Shown in pieces: positions 1-48,598 of a DNA stretch of 64,000 nucleotides. The notes below the pieces were generated by a model that did no database searches, was not told the origin of the DNA, and worked only from the letters and a program-made list of their open reading frames with translations. Both the position numbers and the translations under genes were made by a program. Every line of letters starts with the position of its first letter. Position 1 is the first letter of the stretch. This DNA comes from Schmidtea nova (lineage: Eukaryota): the NCBI GenBank assembly GCA_044892505.1, contig CM097883.1, positions 147,994,001 to 148,058,000 on the forward strand. Reading direction: 5' to 3'.

Positions 1-731
1 ACATTTTTATGGTGATGGACATAATTTTATATAATTTTGAAAAAATATTTTGTGTTGAAAATATTTTATGTAAATTAATTTTTTAACTATTTGGAAAATG
101 GATTATATTTTCATTTATATTTTAATATTTTAATTCAATAAATAATAATAATAATAAAATAAATAAATAAATAATACAGGTTGTTTAAATAAATTAAAAA
201 TAAATAAATTACTGTTTGTTTAAATAAATTATATTTCTGACCTACAAGGTCAGAAAAATGAAATAATATCTCAAGGTTAAAAAATAATTTTGAAAACAAT
301 TCTGTTTTGAAAACAACTCTATTTTCAAAAACAATTTCAATCAACTCAAGAGGCAAAATAACAATCATTATTGACAGATTAAGTGCCTTAAAATTTAGTA
401 TATAAACTGACTGATTTTTCAGTTAAATCACCCAAAAATCAAAAGCTTTAAAGAAGAGTTGTAAATTCAATAAATTGATATTACAACATAATTTGAGCAT
501 ACCTATTTACACATCCGAGCTCAGGAAGCTGCAAATATTCACACACACACACACGCATCTATACATATATAAAATATAAGTTGGAATTGATACATATATT
601 TTGTGAGGTAATTGTTTAATTTTTATCAAAATTGTAAATTGTTATAATTTAAATAAAGTTTAGAAAAGAACCAGTCTTTGACTTATTTATTTATATAAGT
701 TCATCAAGTTGAGATTCTTGGAACCTCAACA
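1..731 (+). repeat. 5' LTR of element 1 (partial)
   Basis: Identical by eye to 12009-12741 except one AC unit ((AC)7 vs (AC)8). Ends ...CTCAACA immediately before the PBS. Confidence 0.95.
399..424 (+). promoter_or_regulatory. Candidate LTR core promoter (TATA + TCAGTT initiator-like)
   Basis: TATATAAA at 399-406 and TCAGTT at 419-424; spacing is slightly short. AATAAA at 469-474. Confidence 0.3.
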
Positions 732-733
732 TT

Positions 734-751
734 TGGTGCCGCGAACCGGGA
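734..751 (+). promoter_or_regulatory. Primer-binding site, tRNA-His-like
   Basis: TGGTGCCGCGAACCGGGA lies 2 nt after the LTR end and is complementary to a tRNA 3' end ...TCCCGGTTCGCGGCACCA. The ...CGGCA-CCA acceptor resembles metazoan tRNA-His. Confidence 0.8.
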
Positions 752-992: not shown

Positions 993-3900
993 ATGGCGAA
1001 TAATAATGAAAATAATGATAACCTTCGTAATATTTGGCAAAATAGAGATGCTGATAACGTTAATCGTAATATTTTAATAAAGACATTACCAGTTGAACCG
1101 TATAAAGGGGAACCTGAAAAATTTGATGATTTTTTTGATGAAATTGCACAATACGCAGAGGCTTGTGGGTGGACACAAGATGAGTTAAAAAGACGAATTC
1201 CATTATATTTAAAGGGTTATGCATTGCAGGCATATAATAATTTAGAATGTAAGGGTAGAAATTGGGAAGACTTAGTCAACAATTTAAGAGGTGAAATTGT
1301 AATTGAGCGAGATTTGCAGAAAATTAATGTACAAAAATTTAGAAATAGATACCAAGGTAGCAGAGAAACAATTGGAGAATATGTGTATAATTTGACCGAG
1401 TTAGCTCGAAAAGCTTTTGGAGTAGGAGAACATACTGCGAAATTAATAGAGGATCAATTTTGGAGTGGAATTCAAAAATATTTATACAAGGCATTAATAA
1501 TGGTCGAATATGAAGATTTAAACGAACTGGTTCAGAAAGCTCGAAGAATTGAAGCAATTCAAAGAGATAGATCTAACGCAACAATTGATGCAGTAGAATT
1601 AGAGAGTAAAATAGGGAAATCTGAGGCAACTGATAAAGATGATAATATTCCATGGGAAGAGATGAAGCAGTTATATTTGAATTTTGTTAAAAATAGAAAA
1701 AGGATGGGTCCAAATGCAAGTCGAAATCAATCACCAGAAAATAATAAGAGGTCAAATAGCCCAAGGGGTAGACCGAATAGTCGAAATGACAATTATGTAG
1801 AATTTACCAGAAATGATAAAAATAATTACTTTGAATATAATAAAGATAATGAGAGACGTTTAAACTATAATAGGGATAATTATTTTGATAATAATCGATA
1901 TAATAAAAATAGTCGTTTTAATGATAATCGGAACTATAGGGATAACTTTAATACAAGGAACAATTCTGATCGAAATAGATATGATGATAATAGATATAAT
2001 TTTGGGTCAAATAGAGATAATCTTAGAGGTAGACGACCAAGTCCAAATCAACAAATGTATAATAGAGATAGAAGACCTAGCCCATTTAATAATGATGGAA
2101 GAGACAAAATTAATTTTCGAGGTGAAATAAAATGTTTTAATTGTCAAAAGTATGGTCATATGGCAAAAGCATGTAGAAATATACGAGTTGAATCACCAAA
2201 CAGAGTGCAGTTTAAAAAGGAGCCAGAGGTGAAACAAATAAATGGTATGGAGGTTAAAGAACCCAATAATGAAATCGAGATGCTGAGGGATGAATTACAA
2301 GAATTTAAGACAAAATATGAGAGACTAATTGAAAGGAATAAAATTAATGTATTGATTAATGAGTTTAAAACTTTTACTAATGAAGTTAAGATGGATAATG
2401 ATGAATTAAGAGAACAAAGAGAAAGAGATGAAGAATTACTAGCAGAGATAGATAGACATAATATTTTAAAGCAAGAATTGGACGAATCTTTAAAAAAGTA
2501 CCCTATAGATGATAATGAAGTATTGAGAATATTAAATAAAATTCATGTAGAGGGGATAAATCTTGAGAATCTGAGAAACTTGATACCGCTATTGGCTCGA
2601 AGACAAAAGGAAACAAAGTTGTTTGAATTAGAAATTGAGATAAAAGAGATGTTGAGATGTTATAGTGAATTTGTTCGAAAAAATGAGAAGTTACATGAAC
2701 CCTTGGAAATTACATTAGAAACAAAAGATGGAGATACACCTAAAATCATCATTCATAAACAAGGGGTACATACTTGTACAAAAGTGAAAAAGATAAAACA
2801 AATAGCCAGAGCAAATTGGTACAGCGAAATAGGAATCAATGATGAAATAGTATTATACTTTTACGGAATAAAGATGCAAAGTGAAGATTTTTTAATGGAC
2901 TATGGGATAAATTCAATTGATAACAATATAATAACAGTATCAGTTAAAGTGGGATTAGAATCAATGCTAGATGAATGGATTGCTAATGATAGAAGAATAT
3001 CTAAATCAGATGCGAGTCAGAAAAACGATGTAACATATGAAGCAGAGGATTTTGAAACGATAAAACAAGATGGAGATGAGTCACAAGAGTCAGAAATAAC
3101 AAATAAGTTTACTAGTAAACGGATGGCGGAAAAATTGAGAGAGATTGCAAGCGAAATGTCAACAAATAGTGAAGATACAGATATAATTATAGATTTGATT
3201 AAAACTGTATACCCAAGATTATATTCCAACGCAAACATATCATCTTTAGCAGATAACATAGGGAATCGAATTAAACTAATTACAACAGATATAAAAAACT
3301 TAGTGACTGAAGATGTTAATGAAAAAGCTGTCTTGAAAATATTATTCAGAACAGGAATAAATCAGGATAGAGTAGTAACAGCATTGGCATACCTCATTTA
3401 TAGATCAGAATATGTATTGATAAAAAATGCGGAGAAACAAGTAAATCGAGTAGCAGAACAAATATTAATGAAATTAAAACCCGAAGTGATACCATGGATA
3501 CAGTCTAAAGGTGGGTGGCAAATTTTATACGATAAAACAGTGCCGATAGAGACACCTACCATAGAAATAGATACCCAAGAAAAAGAAGTTGAAAGACGAC
3601 TAAAGAAAATAATAAATAAAACAATGATGAAATCAGGAAAAAGTAATCATGGATTATCAATACCTATTATAATAATGATGATAACAATATTACTTAACTT
3701 AATAAAGGGTAGTACAGGTATGATCGCTTATGATTGTCAGAATCCAAAATGGGGACAAAAATATTCACTATTAGATGTAGAAAATTGCCCAGAAGCTAAT
3801 CCAACCACTTTAAGTACCACAGAACCTAAAATATTTTATGTTTATCAAGAATCTGATTTTATACATACAGAAGCAAAAGAATGTGTAATAAAATATTCTG

Positions 3901-6900
3901 AAGAAGTCTTTGTATGTAATAATATAGCAAGGACGATACTCCGACCGTCATTTACACCAGACACAGTTATAATAACACCACAAGAGTGTGAAAATGCATT
4001 TCAATCAAAGAAGATAAAAATACATGAAATCGAACTAAAAGCACAGGTAGGTGCACGAGTAAAACAACGAGTAGATGTAATTGGATGGTCTTCACAGGGA
4101 GGATATTGTCAAGGTGGGGAATATAGAATATGGGGACACATTATAAAAAACGCCGTTGTAAGACGAGAATACATCGTCGAACTTAGACAGTTTAAAGCAT
4201 CATTTGACAGCATAACACAAAAAATGATGACACACCCTTTCTGTACATCAAAAGAAGTAAGTTGTGACACTGGTGAATCAATAGTAATATATAAAGTTGA
4301 TCCATACGATTGTCCTCTAACAATATTGAAGTCGCTAAAATTTACAGCAATTAAAGGCAAACAGTTTACAAATACAGAATCAACTAAAGTAAGAGATAGA
4401 AAACGAAAGACAATTGTAATCCAAGAAAAAGATACACCCACAATATATATGACAGAATCTTCAGGAGAAGCATTGAGATTTCTTAGTAAAGGGGAAATTA
4501 TAAAATGTGGAAAGTCAATAATACAAACCAATTATAAAGGTCTATATTTGAGTAAAGATGAAATAAAAGATGCGAAAATAAAAGTAAACAAATACGATAT
4601 TAAACTTTCATCATATTTCAATAATAAGATTGACTATTTTTATCACCATCAATTAATGCAATTAGATAGGGTATATCAAGAAACAATAATAAATGATTGT
4701 AAGCTTAACCGAGAAATTTTAAGATCGAAAATGGCATTAGCAATTACAAATCCGGATCTAATGGCCCCAATGCTCTTTTCAGAAAGAGGCGCATTTGCTA
4801 GAGTTGTTGGCGAAGTAATCCAAACATTTCAATGTAAACCAGTCAGTGTATCATTAGCTACGAACAAACAATGTACAAACGAATTACCAGTTATTTATAA
4901 GGGAGAGAAAGTCTACTTACAACCCATAACAAGGATACTAACAGATAAAAACTACATACCTAAGAGAATAGATAAATGTACAAACTTATTAGACCCTCTA
5001 TATAAATTAGATGACGAAACATGGATAACGATGTCAGATAAGAAGGTAGCAATAAGACCACTAAATCTAGAAATGACAGAACTAGATAAGAAACTAGAAT
5101 TCATAGAAGTAAATGATTTTGATAACAATGGACTTTATACAAAGGAAGACATAGAAAGTGCAAGAAAACATTTATTATTTCCGAACGAAAAGGAGAAAGT
5201 ACTAACAATAATAGCAAGCAAAGTTATCGAGAATAGCCACGATGGACAATACAATTTCGACATCTTGTTATCAAAAGAACACTTCAAGAAGGTAGTTTAT
5301 CGAGTTCTATATAGTATATGGGGATACTTTGCAATCCTAGGAAATACCTTCTCAACCACACTCGGCATCTATTATTCTATTGCACTACTAAAAATGATAT
5401 GTTCATCACTAGTATCATTTAGACAGCTGAGACAAGTATTTGGCAATTCATACAAAATGCTAGCTTGTTTATGTCCATTTATTGCAAAATATTTAATAAC
5501 TGCAAAACATGATAAAGATATCAAAAGAATAATAAGAAAGACAACAGAAGAAAGACTAATAGATGACAATACCAATCAAGAAAATAATCATACGGAAGAA
5601 TTCGATCACACGGAACCAACGCAAGGAGGACCATATATTATACACATGGATCAATTAAGAAATCTAGGCAATGAGATCGAAACTAATATACCTCTAAAAG
5701 ATTATAACACCCACACGCTGATAAGAAAACCAAAGAAAGTATACGGATGTTATGGACTAGAAGAAAGAGAAGAAGCAAACGACATGAGGCCAAGAACCCA
5801 AATAACGATAAACAATCAAATACTAAATGCGCTAGTAGATACCGGTGCCGCTGCATCATTGATAGAAGAAGATCTACTAACAGAAAAACAACTTCAAAAT
5901 ATCACATCAACAAATGATGAATTATTGTCACTTTCTTCACACACTATACCTATTAAAGGAAACGTAAAACTTACAGTATACTTTGAAAATCAGACCATAG
6001 ATCATGTGTTCCGAGTAGCAGATATATGTCAAAGGAAATGTATTCTAGGCATAGATATTCTGAAAAAATTAAAGAATCATGTAATTGATTTATCAGATAA
6101 CAAAATAAAAAGAAAGATAAACAAAAGTTATAAAAAGCCGATAGAAGTAAGCGCGATAGAAGAATTTGAACTAGAATATGAAAGTGATAATATTATACCT
6201 ATAAAAGTTAATATTCAAAGTGATGACATATTTATTTTCGAACCCAACACAACGATTACAGAAAATAGAAATATAATGCTAACCGACGAATGTGTAATAC
6301 CCAAAAAGGGTATAATCCCAATTCGAATTGCCAATTTCGAAAACAGAAAAATAAAAATTCATAAAGGTACAAAATTAGGTCAATTATCAAAATATAAATA
6401 TGATATTGGCGAGATAAGTATAGAAAGTAACAACCTTGAAGATACAATTAAACCGAATGACATTAAATTTTACGAAAAGACTACAATAAATAACGATTAT
6501 CTGGACAAGGTTCAACAAAAATTATTGCAGATATTAATTGATAAATATAATGATGTTTTTGCAAAGCACGAATTTGATCTAGGAGACACGGATATCATTA
6601 AACATGTAATTGATACAGGGAACGCTAGACCAATAAAACAACGACCCTATGTAACACCATATAAACTTCGAGAAGAAATAAAGAGACAAATAAATGAACT
6701 AAAAGGGGCAGGAGTAATTAGACAAAGTTTCTCACAGTGGGCTTCACCAATAGTACCAGTTAGAAAGAAAGATGGCGAAATTAGAATGTGTATCGATTAT
6801 AGAAAATTAAACGAAGTAACAACAAAAGACTCATATCCATTTCCAAAGGCACAAGAACAATACGATAAACTAAGAGGCGCTAAATATTTTACGGTCATAG

Positions 6901-6956
6901 ATGCTAATAAAGGATATATGCAAATCCAAATAGAAGAAGGAGATATTGAAAAATAA
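993..6956 (+). CDS. Polyprotein, part 1: Gag (capsid-like, CCHC knuckle) - UBL - Bcl-2-like - signal peptide - class III-type glycoprotein - TM - aspartic protease - dUTPase-like spacer - N-half of RT
   Basis: CFNCQKYGHMAKAC knuckle; LREIASEM, LFRTGINQDRVV and PWIQSKGGW motifs; hydrophobic LSIPIIIMMITILLNLIKGSTG followed by MIAYDC; LVDTGA protease motif; RT motifs WASPIVPVRKKDGEIRMCIDYRKLN. Ends at an in-frame TAA. Confidence 0.93.
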   Translation: MANNNENNDNLRNIWQNRDADNVNRNILIKTLPVEPYKGEPEKFDDFFDEIAQYAEACGWTQDELKRRIPLYLKGYALQAYNNLECKGRNWEDLVNNLRGEIVIERDLQKINVQKFRNRYQGSRETIGEYVYNLTELARKAFGVGEHTAKLIEDQFWSGIQKYLYKALIMVEYEDLNELVQKARRIEAIQRDRSNATIDAVELESKIGKSEATDKDDNIPWEEMKQLYLNFVKNRKRMGPNASRNQSPENNKRSNSPRGRPNSRNDNYVEFTRNDKNNYFEYNKDNERRLNYNRDNYFDNNRYNKNSRFNDNRNYRDNFNTRNNSDRNRYDDNRYNFGSNRDNLRGRRPSPNQQMYNRDRRPSPFNNDGRDKINFRGEIKCFNCQKYGHMAKACRNIRVESPNRVQFKKEPEVKQINGMEVKEPNNEIEMLRDELQEFKTKYERLIERNKINVLINEFKTFTNEVKMDNDELREQRERDEELLAEIDRHNILKQELDESLKKYPIDDNEVLRILNKIHVEGINLENLRNLIPLLARRQKETKLFELEIEIKEMLRCYSEFVRKNEKLHEPLEITLETKDGDTPKIIIHKQGVHTCTKVKKIKQIARANWYSEIGINDEIVLYFYGIKMQSEDFLMDYGINSIDNNIITVSVKVGLESMLDEWIANDRRISKSDASQKNDVTYEAEDFETIKQDGDESQESEITNKFTSKRMAEKLREIASEMSTNSEDTDIIIDLIKTVYPRLYSNANISSLADNIGNRIKLITTDIKNLVTEDVNEKAVLKILFRTGINQDRVVTALAYLIYRSEYVLIKNAEKQVNRVAEQILMKLKPEVIPWIQSKGGWQILYDKTVPIETPTIEIDTQEKEVERRLKKIINKTMMKSGKSNHGLSIPIIIMMITILLNLIKGSTGMIAYDCQNPKWGQKYSLLDVENCPEANPTTLSTTEPKIFYVYQESDFIHTEAKECVIKYSEEVFVCNNIARTILRPSFTPDTVIITPQECENAFQSKKIKIHEIELKAQVGARVKQRVDVIGWSSQGGYCQGGEYRIWGHIIKNAVVRREYIVELRQFKASFDSITQKMMTHPFCTSKEVSCDTGESIVIYKVDPYDCPLTILKSLKFTAIKGKQFTNTESTKVRDRKRKTIVIQEKDTPTIYMTESSGEALRFLSKGEIIKCGKSIIQTNYKGLYLSKDEIKDAKIKVNKYDIKLSSYFNNKIDYFYHHQLMQLDRVYQETIINDCKLNREILRSKMALAITNPDLMAPMLFSERGAFARVVGEVIQTFQCKPVSVSLATNKQCTNELPVIYKGEKVYLQPITRILTDKNYIPKRIDKCTNLLDPLYKLDDETWITMSDKKVAIRPLNLEMTELDKKLEFIEVNDFDNNGLYTKEDIESARKHLLFPNEKEKVLTIIASKVIENSHDGQYNFDILLSKEHFKKVVYRVLYSIWGYFAILGNTFSTTLGIYYSIALLKMICSSLVSFRQLRQVFGNSYKMLACLCPFIAKYLITAKHDKDIKRIIRKTTEERLIDDNTNQENNHTEEFDHTEPTQGGPYIIHMDQLRNLGNEIETNIPLKDYNTHTLIRKPKKVYGCYGLEEREEANDMRPRTQITINNQILNALVDTGAAASLIEEDLLTEKQLQNITSTNDELLSLSSHTIPIKGNVKLTVYFENQTIDHVFRVADICQRKCILGIDILKKLKNHVIDLSDNKIKRKINKSYKKPIEVSAIEEFELEYESDNIIPIKVNIQSDDIFIFEPNTTITENRNIMLTDECVIPKKGIIPIRIANFENRKIKIHKGTKLGQLSKYKYDIGEISIESNNLEDTIKPNDIKFYEKTTINNDYLDKVQQKLLQILIDKYNDVFAKHEFDLGDTDIIKHVIDTGNARPIKQRPYVTPYKLREEIKRQINELKGAGVIRQSFSQWASPIVPVRKKDGEIRMCIDYRKLNEVTTKDSYPFPKAQEQYDKLRGAKYFTVIDANKGYMQIQIEEGDIEK

Positions 6957-9869
6957 GCATTTGTGATAGAAAATGAGCTATACGAATTCTTAAGACTACC
7001 ATTCGGAATGGTAAATGCACCAGCAACATTTCAAAGGCTAATGAATACGATATTGATAGATGTACAACATTGCGCAGTATATATGGATGATGTACTGATA
7101 GCATCAAAAACATTCGAGGAACATCTAGAAGATATAAAAAATGTATTAGAAAGATTTAGAAAATCAAAAATTAAAATTAAACCTACAAAATGTAAATGGG
7201 CAGAACCTTCAGCCTTATATTTAGGACATATTGTCTCAGTAGAAGGCATAATCCCAAACCCAGACAAAATAAAAACAGTACAACAATTTCCAATACCAAA
7301 ATCAGTTAAGGAAGTACAAGGATTTTTAGGTTTAACAGGGTATTATCGAAAATTTATCGAAAATTATGCTAAAATAGCAGCTCCATTAATTGAATTAACA
7401 AAAGGAGTAAAAACAAAGGAAGATGGGAGAAAAACACAGATAGTCCAGAAACTAAATAAAATTAACGAAAAACCACAAAAGTTGTGGACTCAAAGACAAC
7501 AAAATTCCTTTGAGCAACTGAAAGAAAAATTAGTGACCGCACCAATACTTAGATACCCTGATTTTACTAAACAATTTATCATTATGACAGATGCCAGCGG
7601 GAAAGCCGTAGGAGCAGTCTTAGGCCAAGAAGAGGAAAAAGGAAAAGACTACGTCATCGCATATGCAAGCAAAACGTTAAAGAATGCTGAAATCAGATAT
7701 TCGACGATAGAGAAAGAATGTTATGCTATTATGTTTGCGTTAAAACAGTTCAAGCAATATATATACGGATCAGAAGTAATAATAAGAACCGATCACAAAC
7801 CATTAGAAGGGTTATGGAAGCATAAAGATACTTCAAGTAGATTATTAAAATGGGCAATGAAGATTCAAGATATGCAAATTAAAATTATCTATAAACCTGG
7901 CAGAATAAATAAGAATGCAGATGCATTATCTCGTATACCAGAATTAAGTGCTCTAGAAGTATTCGCAATAGTTGCAGAAAACCCTATACATATATATGAA
8001 GAACAAATGAACGATCCTGATTTATCAAAAATAAGAGATGAAATTAAAAAAGGAAAAAACCATAAATATAAAATCAATAAAAATTTACTGATAATAGAAA
8101 GCACGACAGGGAATAAACTCATTATAGTCCCTCAAAAATTAAGACAAATACTTTTATTACAATACCATGATGGAGCACTAGGAGGTCACTTATCAGCCAG
8201 AAAAACAGAAAATAGACTATTACAAAAATATTACTGGGAAAATTTAAAAAATGATGTTAAAGCGTGGTGTAAAGCATGTACTATATGTGCTACTAGAAGA
8301 AATACAGGTACTAAAACAAGAGCTAAAACAAGAGCTAAAACAAGCACTCCTATGAAACTATGTGCCATGGACTTTTTATGCAAATTACCCACTACAATAA
8401 ACGGTAATAAACACATATTGGTTTTTAGTGATTATTTCACAAAGTGGGCAGAAGCTTTTCCAACAAAAGATGAAACAGCGGAAACAGTAGCTAAGCTATT
8501 AACGGAAAAAATTATATTTAAGTTAGGCACACCAAGAAAATTACTCACCGATAAAGGAAGAAATTTTATGAGCGAAACAATTTCTAGAATAGCTAATATT
8601 TTTAATATACAAAAAATAAATACAACAGCATACCACCCTCAAACAGATGGATTAGTAGAAAGATTTAATGGTACATTATTGAATAGACTATCAGTTTTTG
8701 TAAATAAAAATCAAAACGACTGGGATGAATATATAAACCAATGTACTTATATCCACAACATCACACCAAATGAAACAACTGGATATTCACCATACTATTT
8801 GATGTACTTAAGGGAACCAATAATGCCAATTGACACGGTCTTTGAACCAAAAATATCACAATATTTAGACACCCCAGATTATGTTACGCTAATGCAAGAA
8901 AGATTACAAGAAGTATATAAAATAACTAATCTAAAAGTTAAATTTCGTCAAGAACAATACAAGGATGAATACGATAAAACGGCTAAACCTCATAATTTTA
9001 AAATAGGCGACAAAATTAGATTAATGTCACCACAAGTAGGCAAGGGTAAGACAACTAAACTAGCACGACCATTTAAAGGCCCATACGAAGTCATGAAAGT
9101 GATCAATGAAAATTTACATATCCAAAAAAATAAGAACGAGGATCCAACTGTTGTGCACGTCAATAGATGCAAACTTGCAGAAGACGAACTACCAATAATA
9201 AAACCACATAAATACAACTTAAGATCACAACCACAAAGTATATTAATGATATCAATAATCACCCTCATTATATTTAATACAGCTAATGCAAATATAATTA
9301 ATAACAAGGATATAAAAATAATAAGAGAACATGATAAAATCACAATTATTAATCTAAATAGGAACCCAATGATTCAATCATACTTAAAATTTATTAATAA
9401 TTCAAAAGTTATACAAAAGACGAAAAATAACGAAAAGAAATATATCGACAGATACACAAATTTGAAACCCGACACTAATTATTATTTCTGTACAGAAACA
9501 CCAATGTGGCATTTGAAAAAGACCCAATGTGAAATAATAAAAACAAAATCTCAGAAAATATACAAAAGGAAAAAGCAGAGAAGATCCCAAACGGAAAAAC
9601 CTAGAATATTAAATAGAATACCATTAAATAAACCTGCAATAACAATAAATAACTGGGAAGAATTTCAAAATCTGTATCACCCCCAACCAAAACCTTTATA
9701 TAAAACATGGCCAATGTATGTAATAATTTTTAGCATAATATTATTAATAACTATAACAATGTGGATAGGAACGCAAACTTATAGAAAATATAAGTGGAAG
9801 AGGCAGCGTTATCGGAGTTCTCTCATTAGATATATACCTGGAAGGTGCACACTATCTACCCTTTGTTAA
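6957..9869 (+). CDS. Polyprotein, part 2 (same frame): C-half of RT, RNase H, integrase, then signal peptide - FN3-like - TM extension
   Basis: EK*AFV...LPFGMVNAPATFQ and YMDD; RNase H MTDASG / EKEC / TDHKPL; integrase H-H-C-C (GHLS...CTIC), AMDF, TDKG, GLVERFN and FKGPYEV; hydrophobic segments at 9240-9290 and 9714-9770. Confidence 0.93.
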   Translation, partial: AFVIENELYEFLRLPFGMVNAPATFQRLMNTILIDVQHCAVYMDDVLIASKTFEEHLEDIKNVLERFRKSKIKIKPTKCKWAEPSALYLGHIVSVEGIIPNPDKIKTVQQFPIPKSVKEVQGFLGLTGYYRKFIENYAKIAAPLIELTKGVKTKEDGRKTQIVQKLNKINEKPQKLWTQRQQNSFEQLKEKLVTAPILRYPDFTKQFIIMTDASGKAVGAVLGQEEEKGKDYVIAYASKTLKNAEIRYSTIEKECYAIMFALKQFKQYIYGSEVIIRTDHKPLEGLWKHKDTSSRLLKWAMKIQDMQIKIIYKPGRINKNADALSRIPELSALEVFAIVAENPIHIYEEQMNDPDLSKIRDEIKKGKNHKYKINKNLLIIESTTGNKLIIVPQKLRQILLLQYHDGALGGHLSARKTENRLLQKYYWENLKNDVKAWCKACTICATRRNTGTKTRAKTRAKTSTPMKLCAMDFLCKLPTTINGNKHILVFSDYFTKWAEAFPTKDETAETVAKLLTEKIIFKLGTPRKLLTDKGRNFMSETISRIANIFNIQKINTTAYHPQTDGLVERFNGTLLNRLSVFVNKNQNDWDEYINQCTYIHNITPNETTGYSPYYLMYLREPIMPIDTVFEPKISQYLDTPDYVTLMQERLQEVYKITNLKVKFRQEQYKDEYDKTAKPHNFKIGDKIRLMSPQVGKGKTTKLARPFKGPYEVMKVINENLHIQKNKNEDPTVVHVNRCKLAEDELPIIKPHKYNLRSQPQSILMISIITLIIFNTANANIINNKDIKIIREHDKITIINLNRNPMIQSYLKFINNSKVIQKTKNNEKKYIDRYTNLKPDTNYYFCTETPMWHLKKTQCEIIKTKSQKIYKRKKQRRSQTEKPRILNRIPLNKPAITINNWEEFQNLYHPQPKPLYKTWPMYVIIFSIILLITITMWIGTQTYRKYKWKRQRYRSSLIRYIPGRCTLSTLC

Positions 9870-10049
9870 AATAAAAAACCCAATCATAAATTGTAAAATA
9901 GCCCATCCAATCATATTTCAGAAATCATTTTACCCAATAAAATTATATCAAAATCATCTATATATGTGTCCAATAATTTATAAAATTTACCCATATCTGA
10001 CAATATATTATATTGCATCTAAGGAATAGATCAACCAACAATCCAACCA

Positions 10050-11663
10050 ATGAACCAATCAGCCTCAAACAATCAGTCAAGCTCAACAATATCCACATAC
10101 ACATACACATGCACCACATATAAACACCACACAGCATTTTATAAGACCATTCAAAATAGCATTCACACAGATGAGGAAGAAATTACACCAAGGAAATTCC
10201 CGAATCAGGTATGCATACCAAATGTATTAAAAGTAGATATAGAAGAAAGAGAAATGATCATCGTAAAATTCAACTCATCAAGAAGATTTAAATTAAAAGA
10301 AATCATAGGTAGTTTTGAAGAAAGTCAAAATGCAGATAGAGATGCAAGAGAAGGCATCAAAATTCCCCACAGAATAGTAATTCATACTACCAAAACAACA
10401 ATATCACTAAAACACAACGATAAAGTATTAGCGATTGCAAACAATACATCAATAATATTTAAAACCCTTAGAGAACGTAAATTGTCTACAGAATTCAACA
10501 ATATCATTATACAACTACATAATATGCCATGTGTAATTGCAATTGAAATATTATATGTACCCACAATAGAAAATCCCTTTAAAAAATTAGAACCCATTTG
10601 GTCAGACATTAGAATGGATAACATATTCGTAGAAAAGAAAATACCTTTCACGAAGCAAACACTAACACCCGAAGAAAGACAAGGAAAAATAACTTTTGTA
10701 GACATAAAATCGGTACAAGATTTTAATAAAGAGTACAGACCAGTAGATGTCTGTATTAGAAACTACAAAGGAGACACACTATTTCAAAGTAAAATTACCC
10801 CAAGAGAAAAAATACAAAGATTCTTTCCAGAAATCACAATGGCTACCAGAGAAAATAGTATAGGCAATATGGACGAATTCATAGCATTGTTAGAAATCAA
10901 GAAACACCTCTATGGAAAAATAATAGTAGGTTTCGACATTATGAAAAAACTGAAAAGTGTCACAATAGACCTGGATGATATTATGGGAGTAAGAGAACTC
11001 TCGAACACCGAATATATGAAAACATTCGTCAATAATGTCCCGGAAGACAGGATTAAATTATCAAATTTAGCATTTCAGATTATTATGAATACAAATGATC
11101 TGAAGAGAAACAAAAAACTTAATGATATATTATTAAAACCAGAACCTTTTAATGTTGGTGAAACTTGCTTAATAGTTCGCTTACTATATTTACTCACAGA
11201 AACCGAATGGGAAAAAGCTGTTGACAATGGAATGAAAACAATAACAAAGAAAACAATTAAAGAAAATTGTTCCACATCGGACGGAAATAAGAAACCAACA
11301 TTTGAAATCATAACAATAGATGAAGATAACTCTAATTTGGAAGTAGAAGGAATTGAGCCAATGGAAGAAGATGAATTAGGACCAGAACCTCAAATCACAA
11401 TAGAAGAACCCATGCCAGAAATCACTGTCACATATAATAGCAATGTAAAGAAAACAACAGTGATTGTAGATGGGAATGAAATACACATATATTATGTTGA
11501 AAAAGGTTATGAGGACATAACCTTGACGCCCCAGGGAGTAGTGTTAGATACAGGGAAGATAGTCGAAAATTTTGAGATAGATGAAAATTATACAATAGGG
11601 GCAAATAAGTACAGACTAAATGTGTATGTGGATAACAACAATCAGAACCCAGGCCAACAATGA
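10050..11663 (+). CDS. Accessory ORF of element 1 (537 aa) with a REX4/ISG20-like DEDDh exonuclease fold and degenerate catalytic residues
   Basis: Intact long ORF between pol and the 3' LTR. FVDIKSV...VCIRNYKGDTLFQSKITPREKIQRFFPEITMAT...HLYGKIIVGFDIMKKLKSV...VRELS...LSNLAFQII...FNVGETCLIVRLLY follows the REX4-type pattern. Confidence 0.65.
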   Translation: MNQSASNNQSSSTISTYTYTCTTYKHHTAFYKTIQNSIHTDEEEITPRKFPNQVCIPNVLKVDIEEREMIIVKFNSSRRFKLKEIIGSFEESQNADRDAREGIKIPHRIVIHTTKTTISLKHNDKVLAIANNTSIIFKTLRERKLSTEFNNIIIQLHNMPCVIAIEILYVPTIENPFKKLEPIWSDIRMDNIFVEKKIPFTKQTLTPEERQGKITFVDIKSVQDFNKEYRPVDVCIRNYKGDTLFQSKITPREKIQRFFPEITMATRENSIGNMDEFIALLEIKKHLYGKIIVGFDIMKKLKSVTIDLDDIMGVRELSNTEYMKTFVNNVPEDRIKLSNLAFQIIMNTNDLKRNKKLNDILLKPEPFNVGETCLIVRLLYLLTETEWEKAVDNGMKTITKKTIKENCSTSDGNKKPTFEIITIDEDNSNLEVEGIEPMEEDELGPEPQITIEEPMPEITVTYNSNVKKTTVIVDGNEIHIYYVEKGYEDITLTPQGVVLDTGKIVENFEIDENYTIGANKYRLNVYVDNNNQNPGQQ

Positions 11664-12741
11664 TAATAATTTGACTTGATGAACTACATTTGATTGTGAT
11701 AACATTTTCTTTTATTTTATTGGTTTTGATAATTGATGATATGAATAATTGATTTTATTTGTTGATGTATTTTTTTAAAATAGATAGACAATGGAAAATA
11801 TCAAATTCAATGACATTATGATTTTAGTGATTTTATATGATAATATTTTATGTGATGACTATCTGGCAATTTTTATTTTTATGGGATAATTTTATTTTGT
11901 TTCTGTTAATAAAATATTGTTGAAAATTAATTTTTGTAATGACAATTTATCATCATGACAATTTATAATTTGACAATTTATCATTTGTGATATTGCGAAC
12001 ATTTATTGACATTTTTATGGTGATGGACATAATTTTATATAATTTTGAAAAAATATTTTGTGTTGAAAATATTTTATGTAAATTAATTTTTTAACTATTT
12101 GGAAAATGGATTATATTTTCATTTATATTTTAATATTTTAATTCAATAAATAATAATAATAATAAAATAAATAAATAAATAATACAGGTTGTTTAAATAA
12201 ATTAAAAATAAATAAATTACTGTTTGTTTAAATAAATTATATTTCTGACCTACAAGGTCAGAAAAATGAAATAATATCTCAAGGTTAAAAAATAATTTTG
12301 AAAACAATTCTGTTTTGAAAACAACTCTATTTTCAAAAACAATTTCAATCAACTCAAGAGGCAAAATAACAATCATTATTGACAGATTAAGTGCCTTAAA
12401 ATTTAGTATATAAACTGACTGATTTTTCAGTTAAATCACCCAAAAATCAAAAGCTTTAAAGAAGAGTTGTAAATTCAATAAATTGATATTACAACATAAT
12501 TTGAGCATACCTATTTACACATCCGAGCTCAGGAAGCTGCAAATATTCACACACACACACACACGCATCTATACATATATAAAATATAAGTTGGAATTGA
12601 TACATATATTTTGTGAGGTAATTGTTTAATTTTTATCAAAATTGTAAATTGTTATAATTTAAATAAAGTTTAGAAAAGAACCAGTCTTTGACTTATTTAT
12701 TTATATAAGTTCATCAAGTTGAGATTCTTGGAACCTCAACA
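11542..12741 (+). repeat. 3' LTR of element 1 (start inferred)
   Basis: 12009-12741 matches the 5' LTR. The start is inferred from purine run AGGGAGTAG (11533-11541) followed by TGTT, which complements the AACA end; it cannot be confirmed because the 5' LTR start lies outside the window. Confidence 0.75.
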
Positions 12742-19945: not shown

Positions 19946-22150
19946 CAATAATAAAAAAGCAATAATTTTGTTTGGGATTTATTTTTTCTATTTTCGATTG
20001 ATATCTTGATTCGACATCACATTTGATAAAAAAAAGATTTTTAGTTGATTTGACATTTTGTTGCAATGGTCCACGATTACGTAGGTAATTAATATTGAAA
20101 TATTTTTAATGAAATTATTGTACTTATACCAATTTTTGTACTTAATAGTTGTAAATTTATTAATTAAAATTATTTTTTAATAAAATATTATTTTATCAAT
20201 TGTCTTTTGTTTTTTAAATATATTTTGCTACAAAATCTGCCAATGGATATGTATGATTTAAATTTGATACCATTAAGTAAAGTTGAATTCATCTTTTTAA
20301 ATTAAATTAAACAAAGTTAAATAAAATATTAAAATTTATGTTAAAGAATGGTGCAAATATTATGCAGTTTTCGTTGTCCGTGCAAATATCGAAATTAATT
20401 ATTTACACTTTGTACAAGCAATTTTAATCAAGACTGAATTAACTTTTTTTGTTAGTGTGAATCTCAATTTTTCCAGATATTTTGCATAGTTTTGCAACTT
20501 TTTAAATTTCTCAGTTTTCATTTATTTTCTTATATTTATTATATTGTTGAGTTTATTATTAAGTCGGCACAAATCTCTGACTTCTCGCGCTCCTTTTACA
20601 ATAAAAGTCACCCAACTCAATAACATTTATTAAATTTCAATACACAATTACAATGTCGTAAACAATTATTGATAATCTGCACTACTGAGCGACTGGAGTA
20701 GGTCTTCCAATGGGAGATCCCCCTTTCTGGTACGCAATAATTGATTTGAAGTAAAACTATCTAACCTTGTGAATAACTCGTAAAACTATTTTCGACCACC
20801 TGACAATTTCTCGTATATTCCCTGAGTTTACAGAGTAACTATTGATTGGGCACTAATTGAATTTCATTTCGTCAATCCTGAATCTTTGGGATTTTTCTTA
20901 AATTATTTTATTTACCCCTCTGGTTCTGCTTTTCGCTCGGGTTTCTTGATAATCAATTTGTCTGGAGTAATTACGTTAGTTCTTGTTTACTCGGTTTTCT
21001 TTATCTCTGCGTTTCCCTACATGAATTTTTCTAAGATAATAAAATTTATTTTTTGACAACTCGTGTTTCTCATTAGCTTGGGTTTTCTTTAAGGTAATTA
21101 ATTTTTTTTCATAATATTTCTTTTTGGGGACTCCCTTTTGATTTTATATCATCATATTTGAATTTGTCTCATTATTTGACATCCGCCTATATCAGCCCAC
21201 CGCAAAATCTTTATTTTTATTTTTCAAAATTTTAATTGATTTCTGTACTTTAATTAATTACTTTAAATTTTTCATGTTTTTTTATTTGCATATGGTTTTT
21301 GTGCTCTTTATTTTATCTTAAGATTAATTTCAATTAGGGTTGTCAAGTGGTCAACACAAAAAAAGAGAACATTTTAAAAAAAAAATTTTTAAAATCAAAT
21401 TTTATACATAAAGATATTAAGGAACATAAAATTGCACTTATAATTCAAATTTGTGCTTTAAAAATATAAATTAAATTTAATTTAATCATCTTCATCATCA
21501 TTTTGATCACTTTTTTCAATGTATTTATCTACATTACTAACTTTGTTCAAAAAAATTTCATTTTCTTTTATTTCTTTATAAAATTCCAAACATGAAATAT
21601 TTTTATAATTATAAACTACGCTCAAAATACCTCGGACAGTGGAAATTTTTAGCTTATTTCTTTCTTTAGTCCACTGGCCGCTAATCATGGAAAATATTCT
21701 TTCAACATTAGCATTTTGACCAGGTATTGCGAAAAAAAATTGACATATTTTTAAGAGTTCTGAATAGGCTTGTCAACAGGTCTCTTTTAAAGAGAACATG
21801 TTCTCTTTTTTAGCACATTTTATTTGTCCTCTATCTTTTTCTATAAATATTCAAATTGTTCTCTTTTTTCAATTTCGCTGATTTTTAATTAATTTAAGTT
21901 GAAATTTAAAAAGAAACTCGGTATAAAAATTCAAAAATTTGAAAAAAAGCAGGCTATGCTATTGCTGTCCTGTCAATATTTATTGAATTTAAAATTAAAG
22001 ATGAAATAATTTGTGTGTATTAACGATTTTGATAAGAAATCATTATTATTATAATTTGTTGTGTTAAATAAATAAAATAAGCAAGTGAAAAGTAATTATT
22101 AATATTATATTTTTTTGTGTTAAATAAACAAGTAAGTATGTAATTTATTA

Positions 22151-23057
22151 TTGTTAATTAGAGTCTTATATTTTATATTCTTGGATTTTTCTATTTTAGC
22201 TCCAAATATGAGTAAACGAAAATGTTTATTTACTGAAGAACTGCAAGCTAAATTTGTATGTTTTAAATCAACACCAAATTCAAAATCCGAGGCAATATGC
22301 ACTGTTTGTAATACTACAGTTTCGGTTGCAAACAAAGGCAAATACGATTTGGAACAACATATTGCGTCAAAAAAGCATACAAATACTATTCGTATAGGAG
22401 AGAGTTCCAATTCCATATGCAATTTTTTTACAAAAAAATTTTCATCTCTGGATCACAAAGTATCAGCTGTCGAAGGAGCTTTAGCATTCCACACTTTAAA
22501 GCACCATTATAGTTATAACTCCACCGTTTGTACAAACAAATTACTGTCAAACATGTTTGATGATTCGGAAGTAGCTAAGCGGATTTCATCTGGAAAGACA
22601 AAAACGAGATGTATCGCAAATAATGTCATCGCTCCATATTGCATTGAAAATATAATGCAATCATTGTCCAAAATACCATTTATATCAGTTTCAACAGATG
22701 GAAGTAATCATGGGGCAATTAAAATGTTCCCAGTTCTTATTCAATTTTTTGACAAAAATAATGGAATAATGACAAAAATGATTGATTTATATTCTTTGCC
22801 AAACGAAACAGCAGAGACAATAAGTGATAATTTGAACACTTGTTTAGAAAAATACAATATTGTCGAAAAATGTGTTGCTTTTTCTGCTGACAACTGTAAC
22901 ACTAATTTTGGAGGTTTGAAAAGATCAGAGAAAAACAATGTTTACAGCCTTTTAAAATTGAAATTTGGAAAAGATTTAATAGGTGTTGGTTGTCCTGCTC
23001 ATATTGTTCACAATTCCGCACAGCATGGATTTGATTCGATGACAGTAGATTTAGAAT
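22151..23057 (+). pseudogene. 5'-half copy of the hAT transposase, truncated at the junction with the next copy
   Basis: Near-identical to the N-half of the 23205-25166 ORF (STDGS vs STDES, KFGKD vs KFEKD); ends at MTVDLE, where a TIR begins. Confidence 0.9.
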
Positions 23058-23204
23058 TAGGGTTGTCAAGTGGTCAACACAAAAAAAGAGAACATTTTAA
23101 AAAAAAAATTTTTAAAATCAAATTTTATACATAAAGATATTAAGGAACATAAAATTGCACTTATAATTCAAATTTGTGCTTTAAAAATATAAATTAAATT
23201 TAAT

Positions 23205-25166
23205 TTAATCATCTTCATCATCATTTTGATCACTTTTTTCAATGTATTTATCTACATTACTAACTTTGTTCAAAAAAATTTCATTTTCTTTTATTTCTTT
23301 ATAAAATTCCAAACATGAAATATTTTTATAATTATAAACTACGCTCAAAATACCTCGGACAGTGGAAATTTTTAGCTTATTTCTTTCTTTAGTCCACTGG
23401 CCGCTAATCATGGAAAATATTCTTTCAACATTAGCATTTTGACCAGGTATTGCGAAAAAAAATTGACATATTTTTAAGAGTTCTGAATGAAACTCAACAG
23501 CATTTGTTTTAAAATATTCTGTCCATTTGAGACAGGTAATCAATTTTCTAAAATTTTCTATATTAATGTTTTTTTCTACAAATACCTTTAAATTATAAAA
23601 TTGATCAAAACATTTTACATCATCAACAACGATGTTTTTAGATGCAAGCAATACTATCGTATTCTCAATTTCTTCCCATGTTGGAACTCTATCTAATTTC
23701 ATCCAAGTAACGCTTTCAAAATTGGATAGTTGACTAGTCCATAACTTTAAATATTCATAAGACATCTTATAGCAATTCATGCAATTTAAATTGAATTTAT
23801 CTATTTCATTTTCCAATCCATTTTTTATATTTTCAGACAAAATAGACTTTACTTTGATTGGAAAAAATGATTCCTCATATCTATGATGCAATGTATTTGC
23901 TAATGAATTTGTTGTAGCCATTACTTCTAATACAGAATTTTGTTCAGATTCTATTTCTAATATTTTTTCATGAAAAATATGCATTAATGATTCAGCAAAT
24001 TCTAAATAAGCTTTACTAAAAGCATCTTCAAAAAATAATTTTAAAATACGAGGAGAGTTATCAATTGATAAAAAATAAGCTTTTAAAGCAGGATAAACTT
24101 CCAAGACTCTTTTCACAGCGGGATAAAGTGATAACCAGCGCGTTTTTGAATGTTTTAATAACGCTTTATACTGAATGTCTACAAATTCGCAAAAACTTTT
24201 CAAAGATTCTGTCCTTATTGTATAAATTGAAAAAAAATTATAGAGTTTTAAGATTATAGATTCTAAATCTACTGTCATCGAATCAAATCCATGCTGTGCG
24301 GAATTGTGAACAATATGAGCAGGACAACCAACACCTATTAAATCTTTTTCAAATTTCAATTTTAAAAGGCTGTAAACATTGTTTTTCTCTGATCTTTTCA
24401 AACCTCCAAAATTAGTGTTACAGTTGTCAGCAGAAAAAGCAACACATTTTTCGACAATATTGTATTTTTCTAAACAAGTGTTCAAATTATCACTTATTGT
24501 CTCTGCTGTTTCGTTTGGCAAAGAATATAAATCAATCATTTTTGTCATTATTCCATTATTTTTGTCAAAAAATTGAATAAGAACTGGGAACATTTTAATT
24601 GCCCCATGATTACTTTCATCTGTTGAAACTGATATAAATGGTATTTTGGACAATGATTGCATTATATTTTCAATGCAATATGGAGCGATGACATTATTTG
24701 CGATACATCTCGTTTTTGTCTTTCCAGATGAAATCCGCTTAGCTACTTCCGAATCATCAAACATGTTTGACAGTAATTTGTTTGTACAAACGGTGGAGTT
24801 ATAACTATAATGGTGCTTTAAAGTGTGGAATGCTAAAGCTCCTTCGACAGCTGATACTTTGTGATCCAGAGATGAAAATTTTTTTGTAAAAAAATTGCAT
24901 ATGGAATTGGAACTCTCTCCTATACGAATAGTATTTGTATGCTTTTTTGACGCAATATGTTGTTCCAAATCGTATTTGCCTTTGTTTGCAACCGAAACTG
25001 TAGTATTACAAACAGTGCATATTGCCTCGGATTTTGAATTTGGTGTTGATTTAAAACATACAAATTTAGCTTGCAGTTCTTCAGTAAATAAACATTTTCG
25101 TTTACTCATATTTGGAGCTAAAATAGAAAAATCCAAGAATATAAAATATAAGACTCTAATTAACAA
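23205..25166 (-). CDS. Intact hAT transposase (probable start MSKRK at ~25109)
   Basis: Zn finger CTVC...HIASKKH; catalytic STDES, SADN and NVERIFS; CxxH motif (CPAH); uninterrupted 653-codon ORF between TIRs. Confidence 0.92.
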   Translation of the reverse strand: MLIRVLYFIFLDFSILAPNMSKRKCLFTEELQAKFVCFKSTPNSKSEAICTVCNTTVSVANKGKYDLEQHIASKKHTNTIRIGESSNSICNFFTKKFSSLDHKVSAVEGALAFHTLKHHYSYNSTVCTNKLLSNMFDDSEVAKRISSGKTKTRCIANNVIAPYCIENIMQSLSKIPFISVSTDESNHGAIKMFPVLIQFFDKNNGIMTKMIDLYSLPNETAETISDNLNTCLEKYNIVEKCVAFSADNCNTNFGGLKRSEKNNVYSLLKLKFEKDLIGVGCPAHIVHNSAQHGFDSMTVDLESIILKLYNFFSIYTIRTESLKSFCEFVDIQYKALLKHSKTRWLSLYPAVKRVLEVYPALKAYFLSIDNSPRILKLFFEDAFSKAYLEFAESLMHIFHEKILEIESEQNSVLEVMATTNSLANTLHHRYEESFFPIKVKSILSENIKNGLENEIDKFNLNCMNCYKMSYEYLKLWTSQLSNFESVTWMKLDRVPTWEEIENTIVLLASKNIVVDDVKCFDQFYNLKVFVEKNINIENFRKLITCLKWTEYFKTNAVEFHSELLKICQFFFAIPGQNANVERIFSMISGQWTKERNKLKISTVRGILSVVYNYKNISCLEFYKEIKENEIFLNKVSNVDKYIEKSDQNDDEDD

Positions 25167-25619
25167 TAATAAATTACATACTTACTTGTTTATTTAACAC
25201 AACAAATTATAATAATAATGATTTCTTATCAAAATCGTTAATACACACAAATTATTTCATCTTTAATTTTAAATTCAATAAATATTGACAGGACAGCAAT
25301 AGCATAGCCTGCTTTTTTTCAAATTTTTGAATTTTTATACCGAGTTTCTTTTTAAATTTCAACTTAAATTAATTAAAAATCAGCGAAATTGAAAAAAGAG
25401 AACAATTTGAATATTTATAAAAAAAGATAGAGGACAAATAAAATGTGCTAAAAAAGAGAACATGTTCTCTTTAAAAGTGACCGTTTGACAAGCCTAATTT
25501 CAATGTCAAATTTATAAGCGTCATTATAGCTTGGTCGTCCGCCATGGATACTTATAATTTTTGATATTCTTTTTTATAATACAAATTAGAATGTATTAAT
25601 TTTATTTAATTTAATTTGG

Positions 25620-29024: not shown

Positions 29025-32000
29025 TATGGATGGTAAATTTATCGATTTTTTCATTTACAGGTAATTCGGTAAATGAAAATGAAAATACCGGTTTACCGGT
29101 AAATTACCGGTATTTTTTTCTGAAAAATTAAACTATAGTGAGAAAAAATAAAAATTTTGATGCATTTCACATTTATTATATCAAACATATACAGAAAATA
29201 TATACAGAACTAGGTGATGACGACTGACAAGAAGTTGCCAAGCATCGGACAGGTAGAGGTTATTGATTAAGAAAACCAAGGCGTTGAAGGTGCTGCTGTG
29301 CCATCGGAAGTAAGCAAGTAAAAATATACAGAAAAATTTTAATGTTTTATTGATTATTTTTTTTTTGAAAATAACTTCTTAAAAAGACTAAATTATTTAA
29401 AGTCTTATCTTCTAAGTTGGACCTGATTTTAGTGCAAAATAAACCTGATCCTGAGAATACTCTTTCTGATTCTACACTCGCTGGACGAATTGTCATTAAA
29501 CAGTCGAATACCATTTGAATGTACTTCCCCCGCACTCTTTCCTGGCGGAAGTACTCTAATTCTTTTTTTACTATTTGTTTGAAATCTTTGGCATTTTTTG
29601 TTTGAGGTACTACGCTTCCCGAGGTTCAGTTTTTTGTTTGATAAGTTCGTGAAGTTTCTGCTTCATGGATATTGCAACATTAGGTGTAAAAGTATCAATA
29701 CTTTCGTTATCTAACTCTGAATTCGTGGAATCCAAATCAAAATCGTGACACTGACTATTATCAACTATAATCGAGAGTATTTCTACAATTTTCTAGATCA
29801 TTGTTGCTTTATTGATTATATTAAAAATATTATAATTTTCTTCATCTGACAAAACCAAATAAGGATCTGTCAAATAGCTTAATACGTCTGAATAAATAGT
29901 CCTTCTCTCTTTTATGCTATGTATTAATTCTTTTTTAAGTTCAACGCTTAAAAATGTATTTTGGTTGGTTAATTCATCCAACATAAATTTCAACGTAACA
30001 TCAGCTACATATAAATTAGTCTTTTCATTACAGAGTGTTTCAACAGCTAACTTAACTGGTTGCAGGCTTGAGATTATATTTGTTAGCAATCTTATTTCTC
30101 TTTCATTGAAATCTGATTCCAGTTTCAGATCTATTAGACTTTTTCGGACAGCATCTTTAAGTAATAAAAATCTCTCTAACATATTTAGTAAACTGTTCCA
30201 CCTGATTCTACAATCTAAAATTAATGAAAGTTCTTTACCAATAATTTCTTTGACATATTTTTGTAGCAATGTATTTTTGGTTGGCGATTTTCTAAAAAGT
30301 TTTACTACGTGCCTTATTCTTGTAATTAAAGAATAAATTTCTGCATTTTGTAGAATAAGTTCGGTAGAGCCAATAGCTTCTTGGTATATTTCAAAATTAT
30401 CGTGTTCAATGTCCGAATCATCACAATCAGAATCCGAAGAAAGTAGTAGAGTAACATTATATTTATCATTATCCTGCAAAACTGATGTAGCTTATATTGT
30501 AAAGAACTCTTATGATTGCCAATTGCAATCCATGTACAAGACATAACTGGTGGTTTTTATTGAGTAATTTTACAGTTTCCTTCATGACAGCAGCTCCGTC
30601 CGATGTTATGCAGACAATATTTTTTAATGAAATTTGAAATTCTTTTAATTTATTTTCTTTTAATTCTGCGCATACCTCAGCAGGTGCAGGTCCATAAATT
30701 CGACTCAATCCAAGATTCCAGAATTTATCATCACTTTCGTGAACATTCACATTTATATATCGGTGATTTTTATTTGATGTCCACTCATCAGTGGTCAGGC
30801 TATATATTTTGTTATTGTTTGTATTCTTTAAAATTTCCTTCGATACTTCTTTCTTAATCTTTTCTGCATATTGTATTACTATTTTTTGAATTGTTTTATG
30901 CGTCTTTGGTATCTCTTGGTAGCCTCTTGATTTTAATAGCATTCGTAAATCTACAGATGTACAAAACTTGCTAAAAGGAATTCCATCTTTTGCTATTATT
31001 CTTGAGAGTACAGCTTCTAAGGATTCATCGTTTTTCTTGAAATAGGAAGTAATTTTTGGTCTCATGGTAAACGCTGGTTCTTTTGAGAATTCTTCATTGC
31101 TTCTTTTTAATATATTAATTTTATGTTGGCTCTTTAGATGACTACGTAAAGCACTAGTACACCCACCTGCTACCTTTATTCTTTTATTGCACTGTTTACA
31201 TGACGCTACATCTTTCGTTTCTGTACGATTGAAGTAGCACCAAACCGGATTTTTATCCATGGTTTCTAAAACAAAATAAATAATATAGAATTAAATTTTA
31301 AAACACATAATGTAATAAAACAAAATAAATAATATTCGAAGATTTGAATTCATATATGTAAATCTATTCGAAGTTTGAGAAATACTATGTCTTGTCTCAA
31401 TGATTATTTGTAAAGTATTAATAAAAATTTTGGTGTAAAATCGATAACAATATTATATACTTGTATTAAAGTATTTAATTTAACCATCGCAAAATTTTTA
31501 TTGTCACTGATTTGTTTTCATACGTGAGAATAATGGGGATCAGCGCCGGTTCGAGATAATTATACGCCCCAGGCGAAAATTATAAAAAGCGCCCTATTTT
31601 AAAAATTAGGTACAAAAATTATGATAAAATAAAAAAGATTAACAAAAAACAATCTATTTATTACTTCATTTCATTTTTTTCGATTGATTTACATATATAT
31701 AAAAAAACAGAATTTATAAGAATGATTTTTTCCAGTTTTTGTAATATATATAAATTTTTTTTATTTCAATACATATCAGAATTTCTCAGAATTGGAAATT
31801 CGTATATTTTGCATGTACTTTTTTTTTGTTTTTTCTTATTTCCAAATTTTTTTAAAACGGTTGGTTTCATAGATAAATTTCAAAATATAAAGTTTTGGAG
31901 GCTTATTTTATAATTTTCTTTGATTGTTTATAATAAATTTTGGCGCCCTCTAAAAAAAGGCGCCCTAGGCTATGGTCTAGGTCGCCTGGCCCTTGGCCCG

Positions 32001-38826: not shown

Positions 38827-39129
38827 AAATATTTTTATTCATATAAACCTTTTTTTTCATTGGTAAACAAATAGTCATGAATACGAGAGTAGTTTTGTAA
38901 AAATTACCAAAATATCTTGCGATTGATTTCTCTAAATCGTGGAAGCCATAGAAAAAATAACAGTTCAACTGACAAATGCTACAGGTGGAAAACATTGTAT
39001 TGCAAAAGCAACATATCAATATTTTGCTTTATATTTAACATAAATTTTCGTCACAGCCTTTGTATAAGCCTGAAATTATTGATAAATATACAACAAATGT
39101 TAATCCATAGTCTATAAAAAAAGAAACGA

Positions 39130-48528: not shown

Positions 48529-48598
48529 AAAACTCCGGGGGATAGAACAAAGTTGAGCTAAGAAAGTGTTGAATTTTGAATAGGGGTAATATAATTAA

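Follow-up and report, generated by a model that had tools for sequence, protein, structure and literature searches.

A putative ISG20-like pseudo-nuclease fused to a dioxygenase-like beta-helix in an accessory open reading frame of a Schmidtea nova Ty3/gypsy element

In rotifers, the long terminal repeat (LTR) retrotransposons Juno and Vesta and the Terminons carry an ORF3 that is described as a catalytically intact nuclease of the DEDDy type (PMC5408684), and a DEDD nuclease ORF3 in rotifer LTR elements is also mentioned in a further study (PMC6338049). In planarians, the giant Gypsy element Burro encodes Gag, a BCL2-like domain, a mononegavirus-like Env, protease (PR), reverse transcriptase (RT), RNase H (RH) and integrase (IN) in one frame (PMC6431247), and a host-side function is reported for the anti-apoptotic cargo of Burro1 (PMC13465017). 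Errantiviruses with a GAG-ENV-POL order are described from Nematoda, Bryozoa and Platyhelminthes (PMC13524379). Loss of catalysis is also known in the DEDD superfamily: Maelstrom (MAEL) and EXD1 are described as inactive derivatives that keep RNA binding (PMC5408684), a switch of catalytic residues is reported for MAEL, and the arenavirus exonuclease ExoN is said to suppress innate signalling (both PMC7968707).

In this study, we analyse an open reading frame, here called ORF3, in a window of 64,000 nucleotides of the Schmidtea nova genome (GCA_044892505.1, contig CM097883.1), the window being the whole stretch of DNA examined. As in rotifers, ORF3 is a separate third ORF of a Ty3/gypsy element and encodes a domain of the DEDD 3'-exonuclease superfamily. 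The rotifer protein, as its authors present it, is RNase D-like, DEDDy and intact, whereas the one studied here is ISG20-like and DEDDh, belongs to a catalytically dead lineage, includes a beta-helix and is carried by an env-bearing element. Its family falls outside the rotifer DEDDy type, since ExoIII holds a His in 35 of 63 rows of the alignment and ISG20 is closest; an aspartate-to-glutamate variant at ExoII (21/63 rows) may parallel the DEED motif reported from rotifers. Burro has the same gene order, with its BCL2-like domain likewise between Gag and Env, but exceeds 30 kb as against about 13 kb here, and the Burro section of PMC6431247 names no nuclease ORF. The cargo and giant size of Burro are not found in our element, in which BIR, MATH and ankyrin gave no Pfam match at E<=1. 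The GAG-ENV-POL errantiviruses share the gene order, a class III-type fusion protein and near-identical LTRs; the main text of PMC13524379 mentions no nuclease, DEDD or Bcl and describes no ORF after pol. Among the openly accessible papers listed in our literature searches, we found none that describes an ISG20-like DEDDh ORF, a beta-helix fusion or a dead form in such elements.

The element and its third open reading frame

The enveloped Ty3/gypsy element that carries ORF3 as an accessory gene is of the GAG-ENV-POL type, with LTRs and the order gag-env-PR-RT-RH-IN; it extends from the start of the window to position 12741 and measures about 13 kb. Its features are as follows.

1..731, + strand: 5' LTR, beginning upstream of the window and ending in CA
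734..751, + strand: primer-binding-site-like stretch starting with TGG, directly after the 5' LTR, recognised from sequence
993..6956, + strand: Gag with CCHC knuckle, Bcl-2-like domain, mononegavirus-type fusion glycoprotein, protease and N-terminal part of RT (Pfam, frame translation)
7008..9869, + strand: rest of RT, RNase H and integrase, in the frame of the upstream ORF (Pfam RVT_1, RT_RNaseH, Integrase_H2C2, rve)
9870..10049, + strand: spacer of 180 nt between the pol stop and ORF3 (motif scan)
10050..11663, + strand: ORF3 (protein P0001), accessory protein of 537 aa, separate from pol, with 63 homologs
10095..10565, + strand: N-terminal domain of ORF3, aa ~16-172, predicted double-stranded beta-helix like that of 2OG-Fe(II) dioxygenases (VIA-align, cupin matches)
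10674..11231, + strand: ISG20/REX4-like DEDDh-fold domain, aa ~209-394 (profile, predicted structure, alignments)
11262..11660, + strand: acidic tail of ORF3 (net charge -20, low pLDDT), beta-rich over a short stretch at its end
11532..11541, + strand: candidate polypurine tract within ORF3, inferred as the best of 62 TG sites
11542..12741, + strand: 3' LTR, its end at 12741 and its match from 12009 observed, its start at 11542 inferred

The first polyprotein segment (993..6956) matches zf-CCHC, Monjiviricetes_fusion (E 2e-88), RVP and RVT_1 in Pfam. The Bcl-2-like domain between Gag and Env, at 3324-3518 (+), matches Pfam Bcl-2 at an E of 1e-4, which is below cut-off, and Bcl-xL at 6e-4. A stop codon inside RT, at 6954-6956 (+), is the single in-frame break of the 993-9869 frame; because of it this copy is not autonomous and could not make autonomous use of its ORF3. 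Past the integrase, an extension of about 200 aa (9240-9866, +) contains, as judged by eye, two hydrophobic segments, one signal-like and the other probably transmembrane; a PDB search with it returned nothing below E 1.3, and it is possibly a second small membrane accessory protein.

Positions 1-731 and 12009-12741 align with 0 mismatches and one 2-nt gap inside a CA repeat. The absence of substitutions in 731 nt of LTR indicates a very recent insertion, although collapse during assembly may have produced the identity. The 3' LTR can be matched over 12009-12741 only, because the 5' LTR starts outside the window, and its own start was sought among the 62 TG sites in 11300-12009 by two features, a purine tract on the upstream side and four nucleotides that match the inverted LTR end, with thresholds of our choosing. 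Only 11542 has both features; the sites at 11372, 11477, 11495, 11760, 11898, 11904 and 11918 have one each and were rejected. With a start at 11542 the last ~40 codons of ORF3 plausibly lie inside the 3' LTR. The suggestion of an initial annotation that the ORF probably runs into this repeat is thus plausible and has gained a candidate boundary.

That annotation had also described a separate, intact 3' ORF of 537 codons, which is real: ORF3 begins 180 nt past the pol stop at 9869, and 1000 shuffles of its DNA gave a longest open stretch of 52 codons on average and 132 at most. The same annotation pointed to the intact frame, an argument that carries little weight by itself, as the insertion is too young for the frame to have decayed and an open frame is no evidence of selection here. 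Evidence of selection comes from the homologs. In the spacer, a motif scan alone points to YAG splice-acceptor-like sites ending at 9901, 9921 and 10029, and the one ATG, at 9964, is out of frame.

A full HMMER scan of 1.84 billion representatives yielded 63 homologs at E<=0.001, all known without genomic context. Word-index searches were nearly empty (0 of 7999 candidates with P0001, 0 of 7998 with alignment A1, and 1 of 435 with homolog P0002, namely P0002 itself), which reflects their sensitivity, given the yield of the full scan. In bacterial and archaeal genomes, 0 of 89 pattern matches were confirmed, and no homolog of ORF3 was found elsewhere in the window by tblastn or by a profile search of 1292 six-frame fragments. 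Where the start of the N-terminal domain is covered (43 rows), the protein begins at a median of 27 residues before a conserved Tyr (31 in P0001), and no RT or integrase match was present among the best five Pfam families listed per protein; the family therefore appears to consist of separate ORFs some 420-600 aa long. The tail of P0002 is a biotin-carboxylase fragment (Biotin_carb_N) and P0003 runs into an unrelated long tail, and both are probably partial, chimeric gene predictions (fusions). Homolog P0027 has a RING finger at its end.

The window contains further repeats. A second GAG-ENV-POL element (48573-57415, +) is frameshifted and 27-60% identical to the first in matched pieces, and neither an ORF3 homolog nor paired LTRs were found in it. 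The segment 21765-25496 holds a transposase-like ORF (23205-25181, -), with no Pfam match at E 0.01, and, at 22136-23134, an almost identical inverted copy of part of it (972-nt arms, 99%). A BED-finger/DUF659 hAT-like transposase lies in two pieces at 29793-31290 (-), and 39100-40200 and 45300-48300 are complex short-period repeat arrays, partly inverted to each other.

Predicted folds of the ORF3 protein

Structure prediction gives, with high confidence, a protein composed of a beta-helix, an ISG20-like DEDDh domain and an acidic tail. The AlphaFold model computed with the family alignment has a mean pLDDT of 78, with most 10-residue blocks over residues 21-400 above 85 and low values in the tail; the nuclease region folded from its single sequence reached a pLDDT of 32. 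A homodimer prediction for aa 16-405 scored 0.00, in a run without alignment or folded controls, and speaks neither for nor against a dimer.

The REX4/ISG20 layout ascribed earlier to the region ~10690-11200 was borne out, in that a DEDDh fold is predicted and superposes on ISG20 (1wlj) with Z 18.2 and an rmsd of 2.8 A over 163 residues. ISG20L2 (7yw5) follows at 18.1, Pan2 scores 14.4, and SDN1 (5z9x) belongs to the same group of structures. Profiles agree where the family is used: the family profile matches ISG20L2 7yw5 at E 1e-33, ISG20 at 1e-20 and SDN1 at 3.5e-17, whereas P0001 alone reaches ISG20 1wlj at 0.056. In the proposed comparison with RNase_T, P0001 alone has no match to this Pfam family at E<=1, and 32 of the 64 family members (P0001 and its 63 homologs) do. 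Language-model features of aa 200-400 retrieved RNase_T in 27 of 30 atlas matches, with a top score of 0.94. In common with ISG20-type exonucleases, ORF3 has the motifs ExoI, ExoII and ExoIII in this order; it differs from them in having four of five catalytic residues replaced, in its fusion to a beta-helix and an acidic tail, and in being encoded by a retroelement.

The N-terminal ~200 aa, noted as beta-rich and left unassigned by the initial annotation, can now be given a predicted fold. Residues 7-172 of the model resemble an algal prolyl 4-hydroxylase (2jij, Z 10.9, rmsd 3.4, 156 residues aligned by VIA-align), Ofd2 (5yl6, 10.6), a viral prolyl hydroxylase (10.4) and ALKBH7 (4qkb, 10.2). 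Other 2OG enzymes score 9-10.6, and identity is 4-12%; the fold was read from the model of whole ORF3. Foldseek returned cupins, viral AlkB-like proteins and the N-terminal domain of vaccinia C16 (8ag3, E 2.7e-3), and an atlas search with the domain gave no usable match. Prolyl 4-hydroxylase, AlkB and poxvirus C16-type proteins thus share the predicted double-stranded beta-helix at Z 9-10.9, but the HxD/E...H iron triad of 2OG-Fe(II) dioxygenases is missing from the ORF3 family alignment. Indeed, in the segment where it would be expected, HxD/E is present in 2 of 45 rows, P0001 not among them, a verdict drawn from the alignment and the predicted strand order, not from coordinates. Because of this missing triad the domain is probably inactive as a dioxygenase in proteins with intact and with dead nuclease alike, and would be a second pseudo-enzyme. 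Among its conserved His and acid columns only H112 (41/47) and E166 (42/53) are strongly kept; encoded at 10383-10385 and 10545-10547 (+), they are kept in both nuclease forms.

The tail (residues 405-537) is poorly predicted. A blastp comparison within the set of 63 homologs aligned its aa 447-533 with part of P0003 (28% identity, E 8e-4).

Intact and dead forms of the nuclease

The catalytic sites of ORF3 read D218, K220, K300, F367 and T372 (D-K-K-F-T; codon starts 10701, 10707, 10947, 11148 and 11163). They align with D11, E13, D94, H149 and D154 of ISG20, the catalytic residues of that enzyme, and the inactivating D-to-A change of 7yw5, which falls in the last of these columns, is consistent with such a role. 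The earlier reading of D-I-K at ExoI, K at ExoII and F/T at ExoIII was exact, with agreement of two independent alignments; the mapping is unchanged when the 35 intact homologs are the only source of the profile. Three acids are left in P0001, namely D218, D296 and E371. ORF3 thus has a DnaQ-like fold with ExoI to ExoIII in order and lacks the catalytic D, E, D, H, D set; it fails as an active DEDDh enzyme, and we infer that it works like a DEDD pseudo-nuclease. Maelstrom, EXD1 and Exuperantia similarly keep the DEDD fold (5l80, Z 10.6) although the canonical catalytic set is gone, but they are host genes of other DEDD branches, and neither an ECHC zinc site nor a SAM domain was seen in ORF3.

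The homologs show the loss to be inherited. All five sites are kept by 35 of 50 homologs, at most two by the other 15, and three or four by none. These 50 are the homologs remaining after 13 of the 63 were dropped for a gap at one of the sites, and intact means that D or E was accepted at ExoII (strictly D in 16 of the 35). Independent shuffles of the columns, a null that ignores kinship, produced a mean of 33.5 and a minimum of 20 intermediates with three or four sites. In the 16 dead rows (P0001 and the 15), conservation extends to 138 of 143 cells at nine scaffold positions but to 20 of 80 at five pocket positions, all of which were picked after viewing the conservation table. The family alignment therefore distinguishes a nuclease-competent form from a form without the two-metal site.

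The initial annotation held that copies with the full catalytic set would make this one simply decayed. The 35 homologs do keep the set but are distant, and the nearest two do not: P0002 and P0003, which are 49% and 43% identical to P0001 over aa 213-390, also read D-K-K-F-T. In addition, the four catalytic replacements need at least six nucleotide differences, as against 0 substitutions in 731 nt of LTR. Its alternative proposal of a pseudo-enzyme, as opposed to simple decay, is upheld by these two results, and the inherited loss of the catalytic set with a conserved fold is what characterizes a pseudo-nuclease. Judged from these alignments, the copy is very probably a member of an old D-K-K-F-T lineage within the dead form, with a fold that is still conserved.

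How often the dead form arose depends on the columns used. A first tree of 61 rows, made by a quick search with the catalytic columns included, placed all dead rows on one side (SH-aLRT 96). With 13 active-site columns masked (44 rows), dead rows split and four changes of state are counted, and a tree of the N-terminal domain only also splits them; an AU test (LG+G4) did not reject one clade of dead rows (p 0.10). A single origin is not established, given the split in the masked and N-terminal trees, and the catalytic set may have been lost up to four times.

Possible roles of ORF3

The mechanism that we consider most likely, though tentatively and at somewhat less than an even chance, is that of a nucleic-acid binder that does not cut. 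ORF3 protein would be made from its own mRNA, probably spliced at one of the acceptor-like sites. The remodelled site, with lysines in place of metal-binding acids, would hold nucleic acid without cutting it; bound ORF3 would cover the RNA or cDNA ends of the element, or occupy substrates, and so keep off host 3'-exonucleases and small-RNA or innate sensors. ORF3 would then act as a counter-defence gene beside the Bcl-2-like domain of the element, as a shield or decoy. RNA binding, shielding and silencing suppression by ORF3 are all conjectural at this stage.

This binder is favoured by the basic residues (K, R or H) at the ExoI glutamate site of 11 among the 16 dead rows, by the all-or-none pattern of the sites with the scaffold kept in dead rows, and by the precedents of inactive DEDD proteins that bind RNA and of the arenavirus ExoN. 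Dead domains are also more basic on average, with a mean net charge of +3.2 as against -0.6 in intact ones (p 0.01), a difference that is partly due to the lost acids and is measured on rows that are not independent. On the other side, the net charge of the P0001 domain is no more than +2, and a strongly acidic tail follows. Most of the residues that line the pocket in intact forms have been lost, and with them perhaps canonical 3'-end binding; and D218, D296 and E371 remain, so that a residual metal site is possible. The homologs, which without genomic context are only presumed to be element genes, the partial and chimeric predictions P0002 and P0003, the RT stop of this copy, and the decayed second GAG-ENV-POL element of the window, without detectable ORF3, also weigh against it.

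A rival that is unlikely but deserves attention holds that the double pseudo-enzyme binds proteins and not nucleic acid: its folds would offer a surface that works as an adaptor or decoy and ties up either a host defence factor or the partners of the host's ISG20/REXO-type nucleases. A scaffold that is kept while pocket residues drift, a weak net charge, and an N-terminal domain that lacks HxD/E family-wide and yet keeps H112 and E166 would all fit such an adaptor. The same is true of the C16 N-terminal domain (8ag3) among the beta-helix matches, vaccinia C16 being a protein that blocks DNA sensing through protein binding. The repeated acid-to-basic change at ExoI, however, suits phosphate binding better than a neutral surface.

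It is improbable that ORF3 is still a nuclease, remodelled to use D218, D296, E371 or a new site by a Maelstrom-like switch of residues. Such a switch has its precedent in MAEL (PMC7968707), and P0001, P0002 and P0003 all retain D218 and D296, two of them E371 also. Across all dead rows, by contrast, D296 is kept in 4 of 16 only, and no cluster of acids or of His/Cys that might take over is conserved; of the five canonical residues, ORF3 has exchanged four, two of them for lysine.

Still less probable is a dispensable passenger, an ORF eroding slowly in lineages past the need for a nuclease and held open partly by its overlap with the polypurine tract and LTR. The long branches of the dead rows, the possibility of up to four losses and the other element of the window, without detectable ORF3, could be explained in this way, and the finding would then amount to an annotation note only. 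Erosion fits poorly with an open frame of 537 codons, with scaffold residues that are invariant between lineages 25-50% identical and with the lack of half-lost intermediates among 50 homologs, and overlap with the LTR could constrain ~40 codons only. Decay of this one copy after insertion from an active parent is very improbable, since neither the 35 intact homologs among 50 scorable ones nor the RT stop of the copy accounts for unsubstituted LTRs beside at least six required differences, or for identical replacements in relatives less than 50% identical.

Returning to the binder, a broader and rather doubtful extension can be formulated. ORF3 might be the first example to come to light of an undescribed family of accessory genes, widespread among the enveloped endogenous retroviruses of invertebrates, in which a dead dioxygenase-like beta-helix is joined to an ISG20-like nuclease. 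More than once, acid-to-basic swaps would have turned the cutter into a metal-free nucleic-acid clamp that suppresses piRNA/RNAi or innate nucleic-acid sensing. To our knowledge, few counter-defence genes are known in animal retrotransposons. Natural active and dead versions of an antiviral-type nuclease fold offer a comparison by which the question of degrading, shielding or acting as a decoy could be approached. Beyond the DEDDy ORFs of rotifers, the family also adds a further case of nuclease capture by LTR elements, one of DEDDh type in which another enzyme fold, apparently inactive, is present too.
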